Virus record (IMG/VR): IMGVR_UViG_2541047968_000003
Span: 1-4,545 of that record
Source of the DNA: a virus
Taxonomy: Duplodnaviria > Heunggongvirae > Uroviricota > Caudoviricetes
Direction: 5' to 3' (one strand)
DNA: 4,545 nucleotides
In this document: piece by piece, positions 1 through 4,545 of the stretch
Numbering within the stretch: position 1 is the stretch's first letter
How the letters are laid out: each line of letters starts with the position of its first letter
Position numbers and translations under genes: made by a program
Notes under the pieces: generated by a model
Told to the model about the DNA's origin: nothing
The model's input: the letters and a program-made list of their open reading frames with translations, nothing else
Databases searched by the model: none

Positions 1-705
1 CTGCGTATCATCACTGATAACCTCAAACAGGAAGAGCACGCTATTGTGCAGGTGGAAGAAATGCAGGCGGTGAATGCCGTGCTGTATGGCAAATACACCA
101 TGGAAGGGGAACAGTTTGACACGGTTGAGGTGGATTTTGGACGCTCTGAAGGAAATAACATTGAGCAGGCCGACGGTAAAAAATGGTCTGAGCAGGACCG
201 TGATACGTTTGATCCGACGCATGATATTGACCTTTACTGCGATCAGGCCAGCGGTCTTGTGAATATTGCCATTATGGACGGTACTGTCTGGCGTCTGCTG
301 AATGGCTTTAAGCTTTTCCGCGAAAAACTGGATACCCGTCGCGGCTCAAATTCACAACTCGAAACGGCAGTGAAAGACCTGGGGGCGGTGGTGTCTTTCA
401 AAGGGTATTACGGTGATCTGGCCATTGTGGTGGCGAAAACGTCTTATGTGGCAGAAGACGGTACCGAAAAACGTTATCTGCCGGAGGGTACACTGGTCCT
501 GGGGAATACGGCAGCAGAGGGCATTCGTTGCTATGGTGCCATTCAGGATGCGCAGGCGTTGTCCGAAGGTGTGGTGGCCTCTTCCCGTTATCCGAAACAC
601 TGGCTGACGGTGGGGGATCCTGCCCGTGAATTTACCATGACGCAGTCCGCACCGCTGATGGTGTTGCCGGACCCGGATGAGTTTGTGGTGGTGCAGGTGA
701 AATAA
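1..705 (+). CDS. E: Major capsid protein, lambda gpE family; 5'-truncated by the window edge (C-terminal ~234 aa present)
   Basis: Frame 1 is open from nt 1 to the TAA at 703-705. The translation (LRIITDNLKQEEHAIVQVEEMQAVNAVLYGKYTMEGEQFD...KLDTRRGSNSQLETAVKDLG...ARYPKHWLTVGDPAREFTMTQSAPLMVLPDPDEFVVVQVK) closely follows the C-terminal two thirds of lambda gpE as I recall it (e.g. EKLDTRRGSNSELETAVKDLG, GDPAREFTMIQSAPLM, DPDEFVSVQLA). The M at 46 in the ORF track is internal, not the start. Confidence 0.95.
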   Translation: MRIITDNLKQEEHAIVQVEEMQAVNAVLYGKYTMEGEQFDTVEVDFGRSEGNNIEQADGKKWSEQDRDTFDPTHDIDLYCDQASGLVNIAIMDGTVWRLLNGFKLFREKLDTRRGSNSQLETAVKDLGAVVSFKGYYGDLAIVVAKTSYVAEDGTEKRYLPEGTLVLGNTAAEGIRCYGAIQDAQALSEGVVASSRYPKHWLTVGDPAREFTMTQSAPLMVLPDPDEFVVVQVK

Positions 706-713
706 TCCGTGAG

Positions 714-742
714 CGGGGGCGAAATGCCCCCGTGTCTTTTTT
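714..742 (+). terminator. Putative intrinsic terminator or RNA stem-loop between the capsid gene and the FI-like gene
   Basis: Perfect 7-bp GC-rich inverted repeat CGGGGGC (714-720) / GCCCCCG (726-732) with a 5-nt loop GAAAT, followed directly by TGTCTTTTTT (733-742). It sits 9 nt after the E stop and ends 15 nt before the FI ATG. Confidence 0.5.
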
Positions 743-756
743 CACAGGAGACCGAG

Positions 757-1140
757 ATGGCAACAAAAGAAGAAAATCTGAATCGCCTTCGTGAACTGTC
801 TGGCCTGCTGGGGCGAGAGGCGGATATGTCGGGGAGTGCTGCGGATATTGCTCAACGTGTGTCTGAGTGGGAAGAGGAGCTTGCTGTTTCCCCGGAGGGC
901 ATTATGCACTCTGATGAGAGCGGGGCTGATCAAAATCACACAGACGATGGTGAGCAGTTGAACAACACGGATGCTCCGGATGATGTTAAAGCCGTCCGGG
1001 TACGGAAGTGCCTGCAAGTAATGGGGTATTGCCCGGAGACAGGTCGTCCCGTTGAGCTGGCGTTACGGGGTATGCGTGTTCTGGTGCCATCATCACTGGC
1101 AACGGCCATGATACAGCACGGAACGGCTGAATATGCGTGA
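757..1140 (+). CDS. FI: Head assembly / DNA-packaging accessory protein, lambda gpFI-like
   Basis: ATG at 757 preceded by AGGAG (746-750, 6-nt spacer); TGA at 1138-1140. Position between E and FII, size (~127 aa), and an acidic central segment with a conserved-looking N-terminus (MATKEENLNRLRELSGLL, compare lambda FI MTKDELIARLRSLGEQL from memory). More divergent from lambda than its neighbours. Confidence 0.8.
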   Translation: MATKEENLNRLRELSGLLGREADMSGSAADIAQRVSEWEEELAVSPEGIMHSDESGADQNHTDDGEQLNNTDAPDDVKAVRVRKCLQVMGYCPETGRPVELALRGMRVLVPSSLATAMIQHGTAEYA

Positions 1141-1486
1141 TTTTCAGAATGCCTTTGATGCTGCCCTCGCCGGGGTGGACAGTACGATCGTTGAAGTGAT
1201 GGGGATCCGTGCGCAGTTCACCTCCGGAGCACAACGTGGCGGCGAAGTTCAGGGGGTTTTTGACGATCCGGAGTCGCTGGGTTTTGCCGGTGGCGGGGTC
1301 CGTATTGAAGGAAGCAGCCCGTCATTATTTGTGCGGACGGATACGGTGCGTGCCGTGCGGCGTGGTGACACGCTGACCATTAACGGCGAGATGTTCTGGG
1401 TGGATCGTGTTTCTCCGGATGACGGGGGAAGCTGTTATCTCTGGCTCAACCGTGGGCAACCACCCGCTGTTAACCGGCGACGATAA
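1133..1486 (+). CDS. FII: Head-tail joining (head completion) protein, lambda gpFII family
   Basis: ATG at 1133 overlaps the FI stop (ATGCGTGA). The translation MRDFQNAFDAALAG...GEVQGVFDDPESLGFAGGGVRIEGSSPSLFVRTDTVRAVRRGDTLTINGEMFWVDRVSPDDGGSCYLWLNRGQPPAVNRRR is near-collinear with lambda gpFII (…VFDDPEN…GVRVEGSSPSLFVRTDEVRQLRRGDTLTI…FWVDRVSPDDGGSCHLWLGRG…PPAVNRRR, from memory). TAA at 1484-1486. Confidence 0.93.
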   Translation: MRDFQNAFDAALAGVDSTIVEVMGIRAQFTSGAQRGGEVQGVFDDPESLGFAGGGVRIEGSSPSLFVRTDTVRAVRRGDTLTINGEMFWVDRVSPDDGGSCYLWLNRGQPPAVNRRR

Positions 1487-1501
1487 ACGCAGGGTGAAAT
1501 T

Positions 1502-2077
1502 ATGGCGATAAAAGGGCTTGATCAGGCGATTGATAATCTGAGCCGGGTTCGTAAAAACGCCATTCCGGCGGCTTCAGCAATGACGATTAACCGCGTGGCC
1601 ACAACGGCGATTAATCAGTCTTCATCACAGGTTGCCCGGGAGACAAAGGTACGCCGGAAACTGGTTAAGGAACGGTCCAGACTGAAACGGGCCACGGTCA
1701 GAAATCCGAATGCCAGAATTATCGTTAACCGCGGTGATCTCCCTGTGATTAAGCTGGGGATCAGAATGCTGGGGCGTCGTCCGGACAGCATACTCAAAGC
1801 CGGTCAGCATCGTTATCAGCGGGCATTTATCCAGCGATTAAATAATGGGCGCTGGCATGTTATGCAACGTCTTCCTCAGGCCAGATATGAGGAGGGCAAT
1901 GACGACAAGGGAAGGAAAAAGCGTAATCGCCTTCCCATTCAGGTGGTGAAAATCCCGATGGCGGCCCCACTGAAACAGGCATTTGATGAGAATGTTGACC
2001 GTATCCGGCGTGAACGCCTGCCTAAAGAACTGGCATACGCGCTGAAACAACAACTGAGGATTGCGATAAAACGATGA
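1502..2077 (+). CDS. Z: Tail completion (minor tail) protein, lambda gpZ family
   Basis: ATG at 1502, 15 nt after the FII stop; TGA at 2075-2077. N-terminus MAIKGLDQAIDNLSRVRKNAIPAASAMTINRVATTAINQSSSQVARETKVRRKLVKERSRLKRATV and C-terminus [25 protein letters not shown] match lambda gpZ (MAIKGLEQAVENLS…ARETKVRRKLVKERARLKRATV…ERIRRERLPKELGYALQHQLRMVIKR, from memory). Confidence 0.93.
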   Translation: MAIKGLDQAIDNLSRVRKNAIPAASAMTINRVATTAINQSSSQVARETKVRRKLVKERSRLKRATVRNPNARIIVNRGDLPVIKLGIRMLGRRPDSILKAGQHRYQRAFIQRLNNGRWHVMQRLPQARYEEGNDDKGRKKRNRLPIQVVKIPMAAPLKQAFDENVDRIRRERLPKELAYALKQQLRIAIKR

Positions 2078-2469
2078 AACACACTGACATTCGTGCCGCA
2101 GTGCTGGATGCACTCGAGCAGCATGAACACGGGGCGACGCTGTTTGATGGTCGCCCCGTTGTTTTTGACGAAGAGGATTTTCCTGCGATCGCGGTTTATC
2201 TGACGGATGCAGAGTATACCGGTGAAGAGCTGGATGCAGATACCTGGCGGGCCACACTGCATATTGAGGTGTTTTTACCGGCACAGGTACCTGATTCGGA
2301 GCTCGATCAGTGGATGGAAAGCCGGATTTATCCGGCGATGACTGCGATCCCTGCACTGGCAGGACTGATTACCACGATGGTTACGCAGGGCTATGAGTAT
2401 CGTCGTGATGACGATATGGCGTTATGGAGTTCTGCAGATCTGACTTATTCCATTACATACGAGATGTGA
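2074..2469 (+). CDS. U: Tail terminator protein, lambda gpU family
   Basis: ATG at 2074 overlaps the Z stop (ATGA). The 131-aa product [58 protein letters not shown]…[25 protein letters not shown]…YRRDDD…[15 protein letters not shown] is near-identical in layout and length to lambda gpU. TGA at 2467-2469. Confidence 0.95.
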
Positions 2470-2476
2470 GGACGAT

Positions 2477-3229
2477 ATGGCAACACCAAATCCCCTTGAG
2501 CCGGTAAAAGGTGCCGGTACCACTCTGTGGGTTTACAACGGCAAGGGTGATGCTTATGCAAACCCGTTGTCAGACGATGACTGGCAGCGACTGGCTAAGG
2601 TGAAGGATCTGACGCCGGGCGAGATGACGGCAGAACCCTACGATGATAACTACCTGGATGATGAAGACGCGGACTGGACCGCGACCGGGCAGGGGCAGAA
2701 GTCTGCAGGAGATACCAGTTTTACGCTGGCCTGGAAACCGGGAGAAGATGGTCAGAAAGGGCTTATAGGCTGGTTTGAAAGCGGGGATGTGCGGGCCTAT
2801 AAAATCCGTTTTCCGAACGGCACGGTGGATGTGTTTCGTGGCTGGGTCAGCAGTATCGGTAAGGCCGTGACGGCGAAAGAAGTGATCACCCGCACGGTGA
2901 AAGTGACCAACGTGGGCAAACCTTCCGTGGCGGAAGAACGCAGCAAAATTACGCCGGTCACTGCAATTAAGGTGACACCGACATCCGGTACCGTGGAAAA
3001 AGGAAAAACAACCACCCTGACGGTTTCTTTTGAGCCGGAAAGTGCAACCGACAAGACGTTCAGAGCGGTTTCCGCCGATCCGTCAACGGGAACCATTGCT
3101 GTGAAAGATATGGTGATCACTGTGACGGGGATTAAGGCCGGAAAAGTGAGTATCCCCGTGATTTCCGGTAATGGTCAGTTTGCCACGGTAGCTGAAGTCA
3201 CCGTTACTGAAGCGGGCGCTGCAGGGTAA
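2477..3229 (+). CDS. V: Major tail tube protein, lambda gpV family, with C-terminal Ig-like (Big_2-type) domain
   Basis: ATG at 2477 preceded by GAGGA (2468-2472); TAA at 3227-3229. The N-terminal ~160 aa (…[78 protein letters not shown]…[42 protein letters not shown]) match lambda gpV very closely. The T/V/K-rich C-terminal ~90 aa resembles its Ig-like domain. Confidence 0.95.
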
Positions 3230-3242
3230 ACGGAGGTAATAC

Positions 3243-3674
3243 ATGTTTCTGAAAACAGAACAATTTGAATATAACGGTGTATCCGTCATGCTTTCTGAGC
3301 TGTCTGCGCTGCAGCGTATTGAGCATCTTGCCCTCCTGAAACGGCGGGCAGAAGAGGCTGAAGCCAGCGGCAACCTGCAGGTGAGTGTGGAAGATCTTGT
3401 CAGAACCGGCGCGTTTCTGGTGGCGATGTCCCTGTGGCATAACCATCCACAGAAAACGCAGTCACCGTCAATGAATGAGGCCGTGATGAAGATAGAGCAG
3501 GAAGTGCTCACCACCTGGCCTGCCGATGCCATTGCCCGGGCGGAAGACGTGGTGTTGTGCCTGTCCGGGATGATCGAAGCTGTTCGTCCGGATACTGATA
3601 TTACTGAAGTGGCGAAAAATAACACGCTGACTGATGATGATTTTTCTGCGGGAAAGTCTTCGACGGCGAGCTGA
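3243..3674 (+). CDS. G: Tail assembly chaperone, lambda gpG family (zero-frame product)
   Basis: ATG at 3243 preceded by GGAGG (3232-3236, 6-nt spacer); TGA at 3672-3674. MFLKTEQFEYNGVSVMLSELSALQRIEHLALLKRRAEEAEA…RTGAFLVAMSLWHNHPQKTQSPSMNEAV…IEQEVLTTWP…SAGKSSTAS parallels lambda gpG (MFLKTESFEHNGVTVTLSELSALQRIEHLALMKRQAEQAE…RTGAFLVAMSLWHNHPQKTQMPSMNEAV…, from memory). Confidence 0.93.
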   Translation: MFLKTEQFEYNGVSVMLSELSALQRIEHLALLKRRAEEAEASGNLQVSVEDLVRTGAFLVAMSLWHNHPQKTQSPSMNEAVMKIEQEVLTTWPADAIARAEDVVLCLSGMIEAVRPDTDITEVAKNNTLTDDDFSAGKSSTAS

Positions 3675-4114
3675 ATTTTGCCCTCAGACTGGCGCGTGAG
3701 ATGGGGAGACCCGACTGGCGCGCCATGCTTGCCGGGATGACATCCACCGAATATGCCGACTGGCGACATTTTTACCGCACGCATTATTTTCACGATACCC
3801 AGCTGGATATGCATTTTTCCGGGCTGACGTACGCCGTACTCAGCCTGTTTTTTTGCGATCCGGATATGCATCCCTCGGACTTCAGTCTGCTTGCCCCCCG
3901 GCATGAGGAAGAGCAGACGGCGATGCCGGACGAGGAAGACATGCTGATGCAGAAAGCGGCAGGACTTGCCGGAGGCGTCCGGTTCGGTGGGGACGGAAGG
4001 CGCGATATTTTATCGTCTGCGGATGTGGCGGATGTCATGGTGGATGATGCCGCATTAATGATGGCTTCAGCGGGGATTCCGGGAGGTGTGAGATATGTCC
4101 CAGCCGGTTGGTGA
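3243..4114 (+). CDS. T: Tail assembly chaperone fusion gpGT, made by -1 frameshift (G frame 3243-3656, then T frame 3656-4114)
   Basis: The T-frame ORF (track 3701..4114) has no credible independent start or RBS. Its translation (…GRPDWRAMLAGMTSTEYADWRHFYRTHYFHD…DMHFSGLTYAVLSLFF…DPDMHP…LMQKAAGLAGGVRFG…GGVRY) matches the lambda T segment, which is expressed only as the GT fusion. Predicted fusion ~290 aa; TGA at 4112-4114. Confidence 0.85.
3650..3656 (+). other. Programmed -1 ribosomal frameshift slippery heptamer G_GGA_AAG (G to GT recoding site)
   Basis: GGGAAAG at 3650-3656 has GGA (3651-3653) and AAG (3654-3656) as in-frame G codons 137-138, 6 codons before the G stop. The -1 frame continues open from 3656 as VFDGELNFALRLAREMGRPDWRAMLAGM…, the same junction as lambda G-T. 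Heptamer identity and position match the known lambda site. Confidence 0.85.
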
Positions 4115-4545
4115 TCTGGTTATTGACCTGAGTCTGGATGCGGTCCGTTTCGATGAGCAGATGACCCGGGTAAGGCGTCATTTTTCAGGACTGGAGAATG
4201 ATGCCAGAAAAACCGCCACTGCCGTTGAGCAGGGGCTGAGTCGTCAGGCGCTGGCTGCACAAAAAGCCGGGATTTCCGTCGGGCAGTATAAAGCTGCCAT
4301 GCGTATGCTGCCTGCGCAGTTCACCGACGTGGCCACGCAGCTTGCAGGCGGGCAAAGTCCGTGGCTGATCCTGCTGCAACAGGGGGGGCAGGTGAAGGAC
4401 TCCTTCGGCGGGATGATCCCCATGTTCAGGGGGCTTGCCGGTGCGATCACCCTGCCGATGGTCGGGGTCACCTCGCTGGCGGTGGCGACAGGTGCGCTGG
4501 CGTACGCCTGGTACCAGGGAGATTCCACGCTTTCAGAATTTAATA
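4095..4545 (+). CDS. H: Tail tape measure protein, lambda gpH family; 3'-truncated by the window edge (N-terminal ~150 aa)
   Basis: ATG at 4095 preceded by GGAGG (4082-4086, 8-nt spacer), overlapping the T 3' end by 20 nt; frame open to the window end, so absent from the ORF track. The translation MSQPVGDLVIDLSLDAVRFDEQMTRVRRHFSGLENDARKTATAVEQGLSRQALAAQKAGISVGQYKAAMRMLPAQFTDVATQLAGGQSPWLILLQQGGQVKDSFGGMIPMFRGLAGAITLPMVG…LAYAWYQG is nearly identical to the lambda gpH N-terminus as I recall it. Confidence 0.93.
   Translation, partial: MSQPVGDLVIDLSLDAVRFDEQMTRVRRHFSGLENDARKTATAVEQGLSRQALAAQKAGISVGQYKAAMRMLPAQFTDVATQLAGGQSPWLILLQQGGQVKDSFGGMIPMFRGLAGAITLPMVGVTSLAVATGALAYAWYQGDSTLSEFN

Follow-up and report, generated by a model that had tools for sequence, protein, structure and literature searches.

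Predicted Programmed −1 Ribosomal Frameshifting at the G–T Tail-Assembly-Chaperone Locus of a Lambda-Like E. coli Prophage

Introduction

The tail genes G and T of bacteriophage lambda form an already known system, arguably a textbook example of programmed −1 ribosomal frameshifting (Levin, Hendrix and Casjens 1993; Xu, Hendrix and Duda 2004, 2013, 2014). In lambda, gpGT arises from a −1 shift at GGGAAAG, which takes place in ~4% of passages, and the resulting ratio of products is needed for tail assembly (PMC3296357). Experimental demonstration of the shift is credited to Levin 1993, as that work is cited in PMC3296357 and PMC5009743. The frequency of shifting responds to the mnm5s2U34 modification of tRNA-Lys (PMC3296357), and heptamers that end in A_AAG are shift-prone (PMC5009743). 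Both gpG and gpGT are required for assembly of the lambda tail, and both are absent from virions (PMC5009743). PMC5009743 reviews the 30:1 proportion of G to GT, what each of the two parts does, and how the arrangement is conserved among long-tailed phages; the roles of gpG and gpGT go back to Xu 2013 and 2014, as summarised in PMC3296357 and PMC5009743.

Here we describe the corresponding locus in a window of 4,545 nt, the whole stretch of Caudoviricetes DNA analysed (IMG/VR record IMGVR_UViG_2541047968_000003, positions 1 to 4,545). It shows every defining feature of the lambda G/GT family that can be tested on sequence. We conclude with high confidence, from sequence comparison, that G and T of this lambda-like E. 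coli prophage constitute a tail-assembly-chaperone pair of the lambda type, linked by a programmed −1 ribosomal frameshift.

Results and Discussion

Gene Module and Identity of G and T

The + strand of the window carries a lambda-type late-gene module in the order E, FI, FII, Z, U, V, G, T, H. Every ORF in the window scores well over the Pfam gathering score for its lambda family. The features used below are as follows.

To 705, + strand: 3′ part of E, the major capsid gene.
757–1140, + strand: FI.
1133–1486, + strand: FII.
1502–2077, + strand: Z.
2074–2469, + strand: U.
2477–3229, + strand: V, the major tail tube gene and upstream neighbor of G (PF16461 Phage_TTP_12, E 2e-69, plus a Big_2 domain).
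3243–3674, + strand: G, encoding the tail assembly chaperone gpG, 143 aa (PF06894, TIGR01674).
3632–3640, + strand: TGA TGA TGA in the −1 frame, from the GAT GAT GAT Asp codons in G.
3650–3656, + strand: slippery heptamer G GGA AAG, the predicted −1 ribosomal frameshift site.
3656–3674, + strand: G/T overlap; in the T frame, the five final G codons plus the stop encode V F D G E L.
3656–4114, + strand: T segment, 152 codons and a stop (PF06223, TIGR01715).
join(3243..3656, 3656..4114), + strand: predicted fusion CDS, gpGT, 290 aa.
3690–3725, + strand: predicted hairpin GGCGCG...CGCGCC, 33 nt 3′ of the heptamer.
3701–3703, + strand: internal Met codon of T (...LAREMGRPDW...), miscalled as the T start by automated annotation.
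4095–4545, + strand: 5′ part of H, the tape-measure gene and downstream neighbor of T (PF06791 TMP_2, E 1e-37).

The tail chaperone pair appears as two overlapping ORFs with the major tail gene V on the 5′ side and the tape-measure gene H on the 3′ side; the end of T overlaps the start of H by 20 nt. The window as a whole is 98.5% identical to a prophage of E. coli NCTC9112, and its region is matched in 3769 of 5426 complete E. coli genomes (~70%). Over G–T, the induced phages PhiR12_1 to PhiR12_5 show 96.6% identity.

Profile searches identify both partners. G is a gpG homologue by PF06894 (E 1.3e-50) and by the TIGR01674 phage_lambda_G equivalog, against which it scores 164.4 bits (cut-off 74.45); tblastn aligns it with lambda G at 66.7% protein identity. 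The −1 ORF is a gpT homologue. It matches PF06223 at 51.8 bits and the TIGR01715 phage_lam_T equivalog at 206.3 bits (cut-off 77.35; E 9e-62), with the full model covered. A comparison of the GT fusion with PDB chains by sequence returned no match at E up to 0.01.

Two further elements of the module were observed outside the G–T junction. An intrinsic-terminator-like hairpin lies on the + strand at 713–733, followed by a T-run to 743, and is flanked by the E stop (705) and the FI start (757). It consists of GCGGGGGCGAAATGCCCCCGT and then GTCTTTTTTC, has nine pairs, seven of them G-C, and is a strong element inside the late operon. It may impose an expression step from the capsid gene to the downstream genes, or it may be read through by Q-antiterminated polymerase. 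Comparable terminators are annotated 3′ of the major tail gene in the N15 and mEp460 records. The second element is the Shine-Dalgarno sequence of the H start at ATG 4095, GGGAGGTG, which sits in the final T codons and, at −14.1 kcal/mol, gives the strongest pairing of the window.

Anatomy of the Slip Site

GGGAAAG is present as a single copy in the window, at 3650–3656 on the + strand. Counting from ATG 3243, the G start, places position 3650 at the third base of a codon; the zero frame reads GCG GGA AAG, which is the X XXY YYZ phase with GGA at 3651–3653 and AAG at 3654–3656. After AAG, the zero frame continues with TCT TCG ACG GCG AGC (S S T A S) and terminates at TGA 3672–3674. The −1 frame is shut by the three TGA codons at 3632–3640 and is then open from 3641 to its stop at 4112–4114, which gives a post-slip reading frame of 152 codons from 3656 to 4114. 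The G stop TGA falls within the conserved Glu-Leu codons GAG CTG A of the T frame. The predicted junction peptide is ...DDDFSAGK followed by VFDGELNFALRLAREMGRPDW..., and across the junction it reads ...SAGK-VFDGELNF....

An earlier sequence-only reading of this DNA had described a heptamer in the correct phase, a −1 frame that runs straight into a T-like sequence without a stop between 3656 and 3701, and a junction of the form SAGK/VFDGELNF. The codon phase, the two T-family matches in a frame open to 4114, and the predicted translation bear out this description. The distance that it gave, six codons from the heptamer to the G stop, holds when the stop codon is included, there being five sense codons.

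In this variant, the −1-frame TGA triplet ends three codons 5′ of the slip site, leaving a very narrow stretch in which a shift into T could be productive. The −1 frame of lambda opens 13 codons before the slip site, as compared to three here.

In the mechanism that we favor, most ribosomes would read G (3243–3674) to its stop, affording gpG of 143 aa. A small fraction would slip one base back while P-site tRNA-Gly is paired with GGA and A-site tRNA-Lys with AAG. Tandem re-pairing would place tRNA-Gly on GGG and tRNA-Lys on AAA. The slipped ribosomes would then read GTC TTC GAC..., bypass the G stop, and end at 4114, affording gpGT of 290 aa. By analogy with lambda, gpG and the G part of gpGT would coat the tape-measure protein gpH, the T part of gpGT would recruit the tail-tube protein gpV, and both gpG and gpGT would be absent from the finished virion. 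The slip frequency would set the G:GT ratio, which is expected to be ~30:1 if the locus behaves as lambda does. We infer the slip itself, its ~4% frequency, and the chaperone role from the lambda literature.

Conservation of the Slip Site among Relatives

We compared the site across a panel of 19 loci from lambda-like enterobacterial phages, which spans 33–100% G protein identity. The panel comprises the window itself, lambda, HK630, ev099, YDC107_1, PhiR12_1, PhiR46_1, two Stx types, ASU11, N15, mEp237, an Enterobacter phage, LLS, mEp043, mEp460, cdtI, Fels-1, and Gifsy-1. Its diversity derives from a tblastn search against phage records, with rows spaced along the ranking. The viral-contig search supplied relatives at 97–100% identity only, and these are informative on invariance, not divergence.

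All 19 panel loci have an in-phase site ending in A_AAG at the homologous position, and in all 19 the −1 frame is open into a T homologue. The heptamer itself varies by group, being GGGAAAG in lambda, AAAAAAG in the Stx phages, and GGAAAAG in N15, Gifsy, and mEp. The slip site is separated from the G stop by five sense codons, or by one in the Gifsy, Fels, and cdtI group. Among 99 close loci, GGGAAAG is kept in every one of the 98 that carry the anchor motif. In the deposited records of N15, LLS, and Gifsy-1, a −1 translational frameshift is explicitly annotated at this position. The sequence-only reading had called the event conserved across long-tailed phages; our comparison upholds this among lambda-like enterobacterial phages, the group compared.

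A genome-contig search returned mostly lambda itself, in the form of identical lambda-type G matches, 67% identical to the query as lambda G itself is, on low-coverage contigs. These contigs are assigned to Pseudomonas, Neobacillus, Oceanobacillus, Shewanella, Kitasatospora, Chromatium, Leeuwenhoekiella, and other genera, and several are ~48.4–48.5 kb long, equal to the lambda genome. The occurrence of lambda-type G contigs in such unrelated genera probably reflects contamination of the assemblies with lambda control DNA.

Stimulatory Structures and Lineage-Specific Features

Programmed −1 sites of the stimulator-dependent class (dnaX-, IS-, or coronavirus-like) rely on a pseudoknot or stable hairpin 5–9 nt 3′ of the heptamer, or on a Shine-Dalgarno-like element 5′ of it, and the present site falls outside that class. 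The 64-nt fold beside the heptamer is no better than those of shuffled sequences, with z values of −0.15 for the window and +0.43 for lambda. The 57 nt upstream give a z value of −0.40 and contain no GGAGG-like (Shine-Dalgarno-like) element. When the downstream fold is extended to 104 nt, z reaches −2.88, and this fold includes the hairpin at 3690–3725. Folding of the alignment gives a covariation term of −0.31 kcal/mol, with most pairs invariant or broken, and a search of Rfam yielded only two sub-threshold chance matches, a miRNA and a lncRNA. The hairpin at 3690–3725 was considered as a frameshift stimulator and rejected: it lies 33 nt away, as compared to the usual spacer of 5–9 nt, and lacks convincing covariation. 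It is probably incidental to the conserved LAREMGRPDWRA codons, which specify an invariant peptide, rather than a positioned stimulator. Downstream RNA structure is likewise reported to be absent in lambda, and the tailed-phage shift is reported to be a low-level event that needs no stimulators (PMC5009743).

The C-terminus of T also varies among lineages. A motif of the form (acidic)-LM..(A/E)G..GGVR[F/Y] is present in two copies in the window, lambda, HK630, and Stx1_EH2197, whose T parts are 144–152 aa long; in the window the copies occupy 3962–3985 and 4073–4096 in the T frame. The motif is single in N15, mEp237, Stx2_12E129, ASU11, LLS, mEp043, mEp460, cdtI, Fels-1, and Gifsy-1, and these single-motif T parts are 113–117 aa long and end just past it. 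BLASTP aligns the two copies with 8/14 identities (E 1e-5). This pattern looks like the duplication or loss of a module of ~37 residues. The duplicated module could provide two binding sites for the tube or tape-measure protein. That such lineage features, the hairpin at 3690–3725 and the duplicated C-terminal module of T, tune G:GT output or T function seems doubtful to us.

Translation Start of T

T could instead be a gene in its own right, with initiation at ATG 3701 and an incidental heptamer. ATG 3701 is the first ATG, GTG, or TTG in the −1 frame of the window; the PF06223 match starts C-terminal to Met 3701; and RefSeq/PGAP as well as several GenBank records annotate T as a stand-alone CDS. 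Low-level independent initiation is conceivable, since the codon exists. We nevertheless consider a separate gene very unlikely, on several grounds. When the 16S anti-Shine-Dalgarno sequence is compared with the 17 nt 5′ of each ATG, pairing at ATG 3701 amounts to only −1.9 kcal/mol, whereas the seven real starts range from −4.1 to −14.1 kcal/mol and the G start pairs strongly, at −10.9 kcal/mol. Of the 109 ATGs on the + strand of the window, 76% pair as well as ATG 3701 or better. The sequence-only reading had seen no functional ribosome-binding site at 3701, and none is apparent from this test either.

Nor is the codon itself maintained. Met 3701 is replaced by Phe (TTC) in N15, Fels-1, Gifsy-1, mEp043, and mEp460, and no start codon occurs there in these phages. 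The first start codon of the −1 frame varies by lineage: in lambda it is the nominal T start, a GTG that abuts the heptamer, whereas in the window this codon is GTC, so that none occurs until ATG 3701. The family model points in the same direction. The TIGR01715 alignment begins at T residue 5 (nt 3668), 5′ of both the G stop and ATG 3701 and 11 residues upstream of the latter, so a product initiated at 3701 would miss conserved family positions.

Selection on the stretch upstream of ATG 3701 provides a further test. The peptide ELxFxxxLARE, which is N-terminal to Met 3701, is conserved. Across 15 unique, phylogenetically related sequences, the short region of nine codons between the G stop and ATG 3701 (T codons 7–15) gives pooled pN/pS values of 0.52 (T frame), 3.54 (G frame), and 1.28 (+1 frame). 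For T codons 7–31, the corresponding values are 0.31, 2.28, and 2.22. Variable sites in the nine codons number 3, 3, and 7 at T-frame positions 1, 2, and 3. By this measure, the nine codons before ATG 3701 are under purifying selection in the T frame only, which argues that they are translated in the T frame; a ribosome translating them must therefore arrive from G. Lambda requires the frameshift to express its T frame as gpGT (PMC3296357).

These data suggest that T has no credible functional start of its own and, as predicted from the sequence, is expressed only as the C-terminal part of gpGT. With the GTG of lambda replaced by GTC, the N-terminal 15 residues of the conserved T domain would be makeable only by frameshifting, and the GTG-less variant of the window thus serves as a clean natural control.

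The annotation of T in public records is affected by this arrangement. The sequence-only reading had anticipated that annotation from ORFs alone would miscall T as a separate gene starting at ATG 3701, and PGAP does so in the NCTC9112 prophage, where "phage tail assembly protein T" is placed at the equivalent of 3701–4114. In RefSeq/PGAP and several recent GenBank phage records, the stand-alone T is 15 to 23 residues short or begins at the nominal GTG of lambda. T is annotated in at least four incompatible ways: it begins at the lambda GTG in NC_001416 (RefSeq) and HK630, at the counterpart of ATG 3701 in NCTC9112 (PGAP), and at later ATGs in PhiR12_1 and YDC107_1, and the LLS record has a proper T join with a slippage note. 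Some records only, LLS among them, have the correct join. The annotation of YDC107_1 is without G. The correct annotation of the present locus would be join(3243..3656, 3656..4114) with ribosomal slippage, as in phage LLS. The practical value of the analysis lies in annotation quality.

Transcriptional Slippage

A second way to join the frames would be slippage of RNA polymerase on G3A3, in which one extra base in the mRNA puts T in frame with G; a one-base deletion would yield the +1 frame instead. Trans-frame products of phages and IS elements are known to arise by transcriptional slippage as well (PMC5009743). Stx-type relatives have a longer A run, AAAAAAG. The homopolymer runs here, GGG and AAA, are three bases each, whereas productive transcriptional slippage usually needs runs of ~seven or more. 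Conservation applies to the pattern that lets the tRNAs re-pair at a fixed codon phase (X XXA AAG) and not to the length of a homopolymer. Moreover, shifting in lambda responds to modification of the tRNA-Lys anticodon, which places the event on the ribosome (PMC3296357). Polymerase slippage is hence highly improbable at this locus, and ribosomal frameshifting remains the preferred explanation.

Chance Occurrence

By count alone, the heptamer does not reach significance: the expectation is ~0.76 copies per window over both strands, and at least one copy appears in 106 of 200 shuffles; the case for ribosomal frameshifting therefore rests on phase, context, and conservation. When the codons of G are shuffled, 1.6% of trials have an in-phase X XXY YYZ heptamer at one of the final ten codon junctions, and 0.12% have an in-phase X XXA AAG there. 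The window has 1326 in-frame codon junctions, of which just 0.45% precede a −1 run of at least 152 codons. The window genes contain six in-phase slippery-type heptamers, and a long −1 frame follows only the one at 3650–3656, the other five being followed by −1 runs of 1, 4, 6, 7, and 51 codons.

These other heptamers were considered as possible further recoding sites. Those at 1279, 1642, 1915, and 2560 meet a −1 stop within 1–7 codons and would give truncated products only, and they were rejected; they are GGGTTTT in FII (1279), GACAAAG and GAAAAAG in Z, and AAACCCG in V (2560). The remaining one, an in-phase G GGG GGG at 4382–4388 on the + strand in gene H, has 51 open −1 codons (ORF 4361–4543).

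That the heptamer is a chance occurrence, or that G–T is a pseudogene, a single gene disrupted by a frameshift mutation or a sequencing error, has a negligible probability in our judgment: although the heptamer alone is expected 0.76 times per window, a phased X XXA AAG in that zone has a probability of 0.12%, the two-frame layout, slip-site position, and short zero-frame tail recur in 19/19 panel loci and 98/98 close loci with the anchor motif, and the region is found in 3769 of 5426 complete E. coli genomes.

Comparison with Known Systems

The −1 shift in E. coli dnaX yields two products, the gamma and tau subunits, from one gene in a set ratio. Its heptamer is A AAA AAG and, like that of the window, positions tRNA-Lys on A_AAG. 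Shifting in dnaX reaches ~50% and uses an upstream Shine-Dalgarno-like element and a downstream hairpin. Unlike dnaX, the window has neither an upstream Shine-Dalgarno-like element nor a positioned or covarying downstream structure.

N15 (gp14/gp15), Gifsy-1, Fels-1, cdtI, and mEp460 have the same gpG/gpT pair and a homologous −1 shift site with the invariant A_AAG. At their heptamer, G GAA AAG, the P-site codon specifies Glu, not Gly. In the Gifsy, Fels, and cdtI group, the G stop comes one sense codon after the site, and T of the N15/Gifsy type is ~113–115 residues long and has one C-terminal copy of G..GGVR[FY], not two.

The closest known system is lambda (NC_001416), whose heptamer, G GGA AAG, is the same, is in the same phase, and is likewise followed by five sense codons and the G stop. 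The heptamer lies in a 15-nt block, TTTCTGCGGGAAAGT, that is identical in lambda and the window, whereas the ~70 nt just 5′ are heavily diverged and indel-rich. The two also share the −1 continuation VFDGEL(N/S)FAL(R/K)LAREMGRPDW and the gene order V-G-T-H, with 67% identity between the G proteins and 87% identity between the G–T DNA sequences. Differences from lambda are minor. In the window, the C-terminal linker of G, 5′ of the slip site, has a divergent sequence with three additional residues; T exceeds that of lambda by eight residues and overlaps H by 20 nt as compared to 8 nt in lambda. The biology is nothing new, and the locus would represent a paradigm case of low-level, stimulator-free −1 frameshifting that fixes the stoichiometry of two tail-assembly chaperones.
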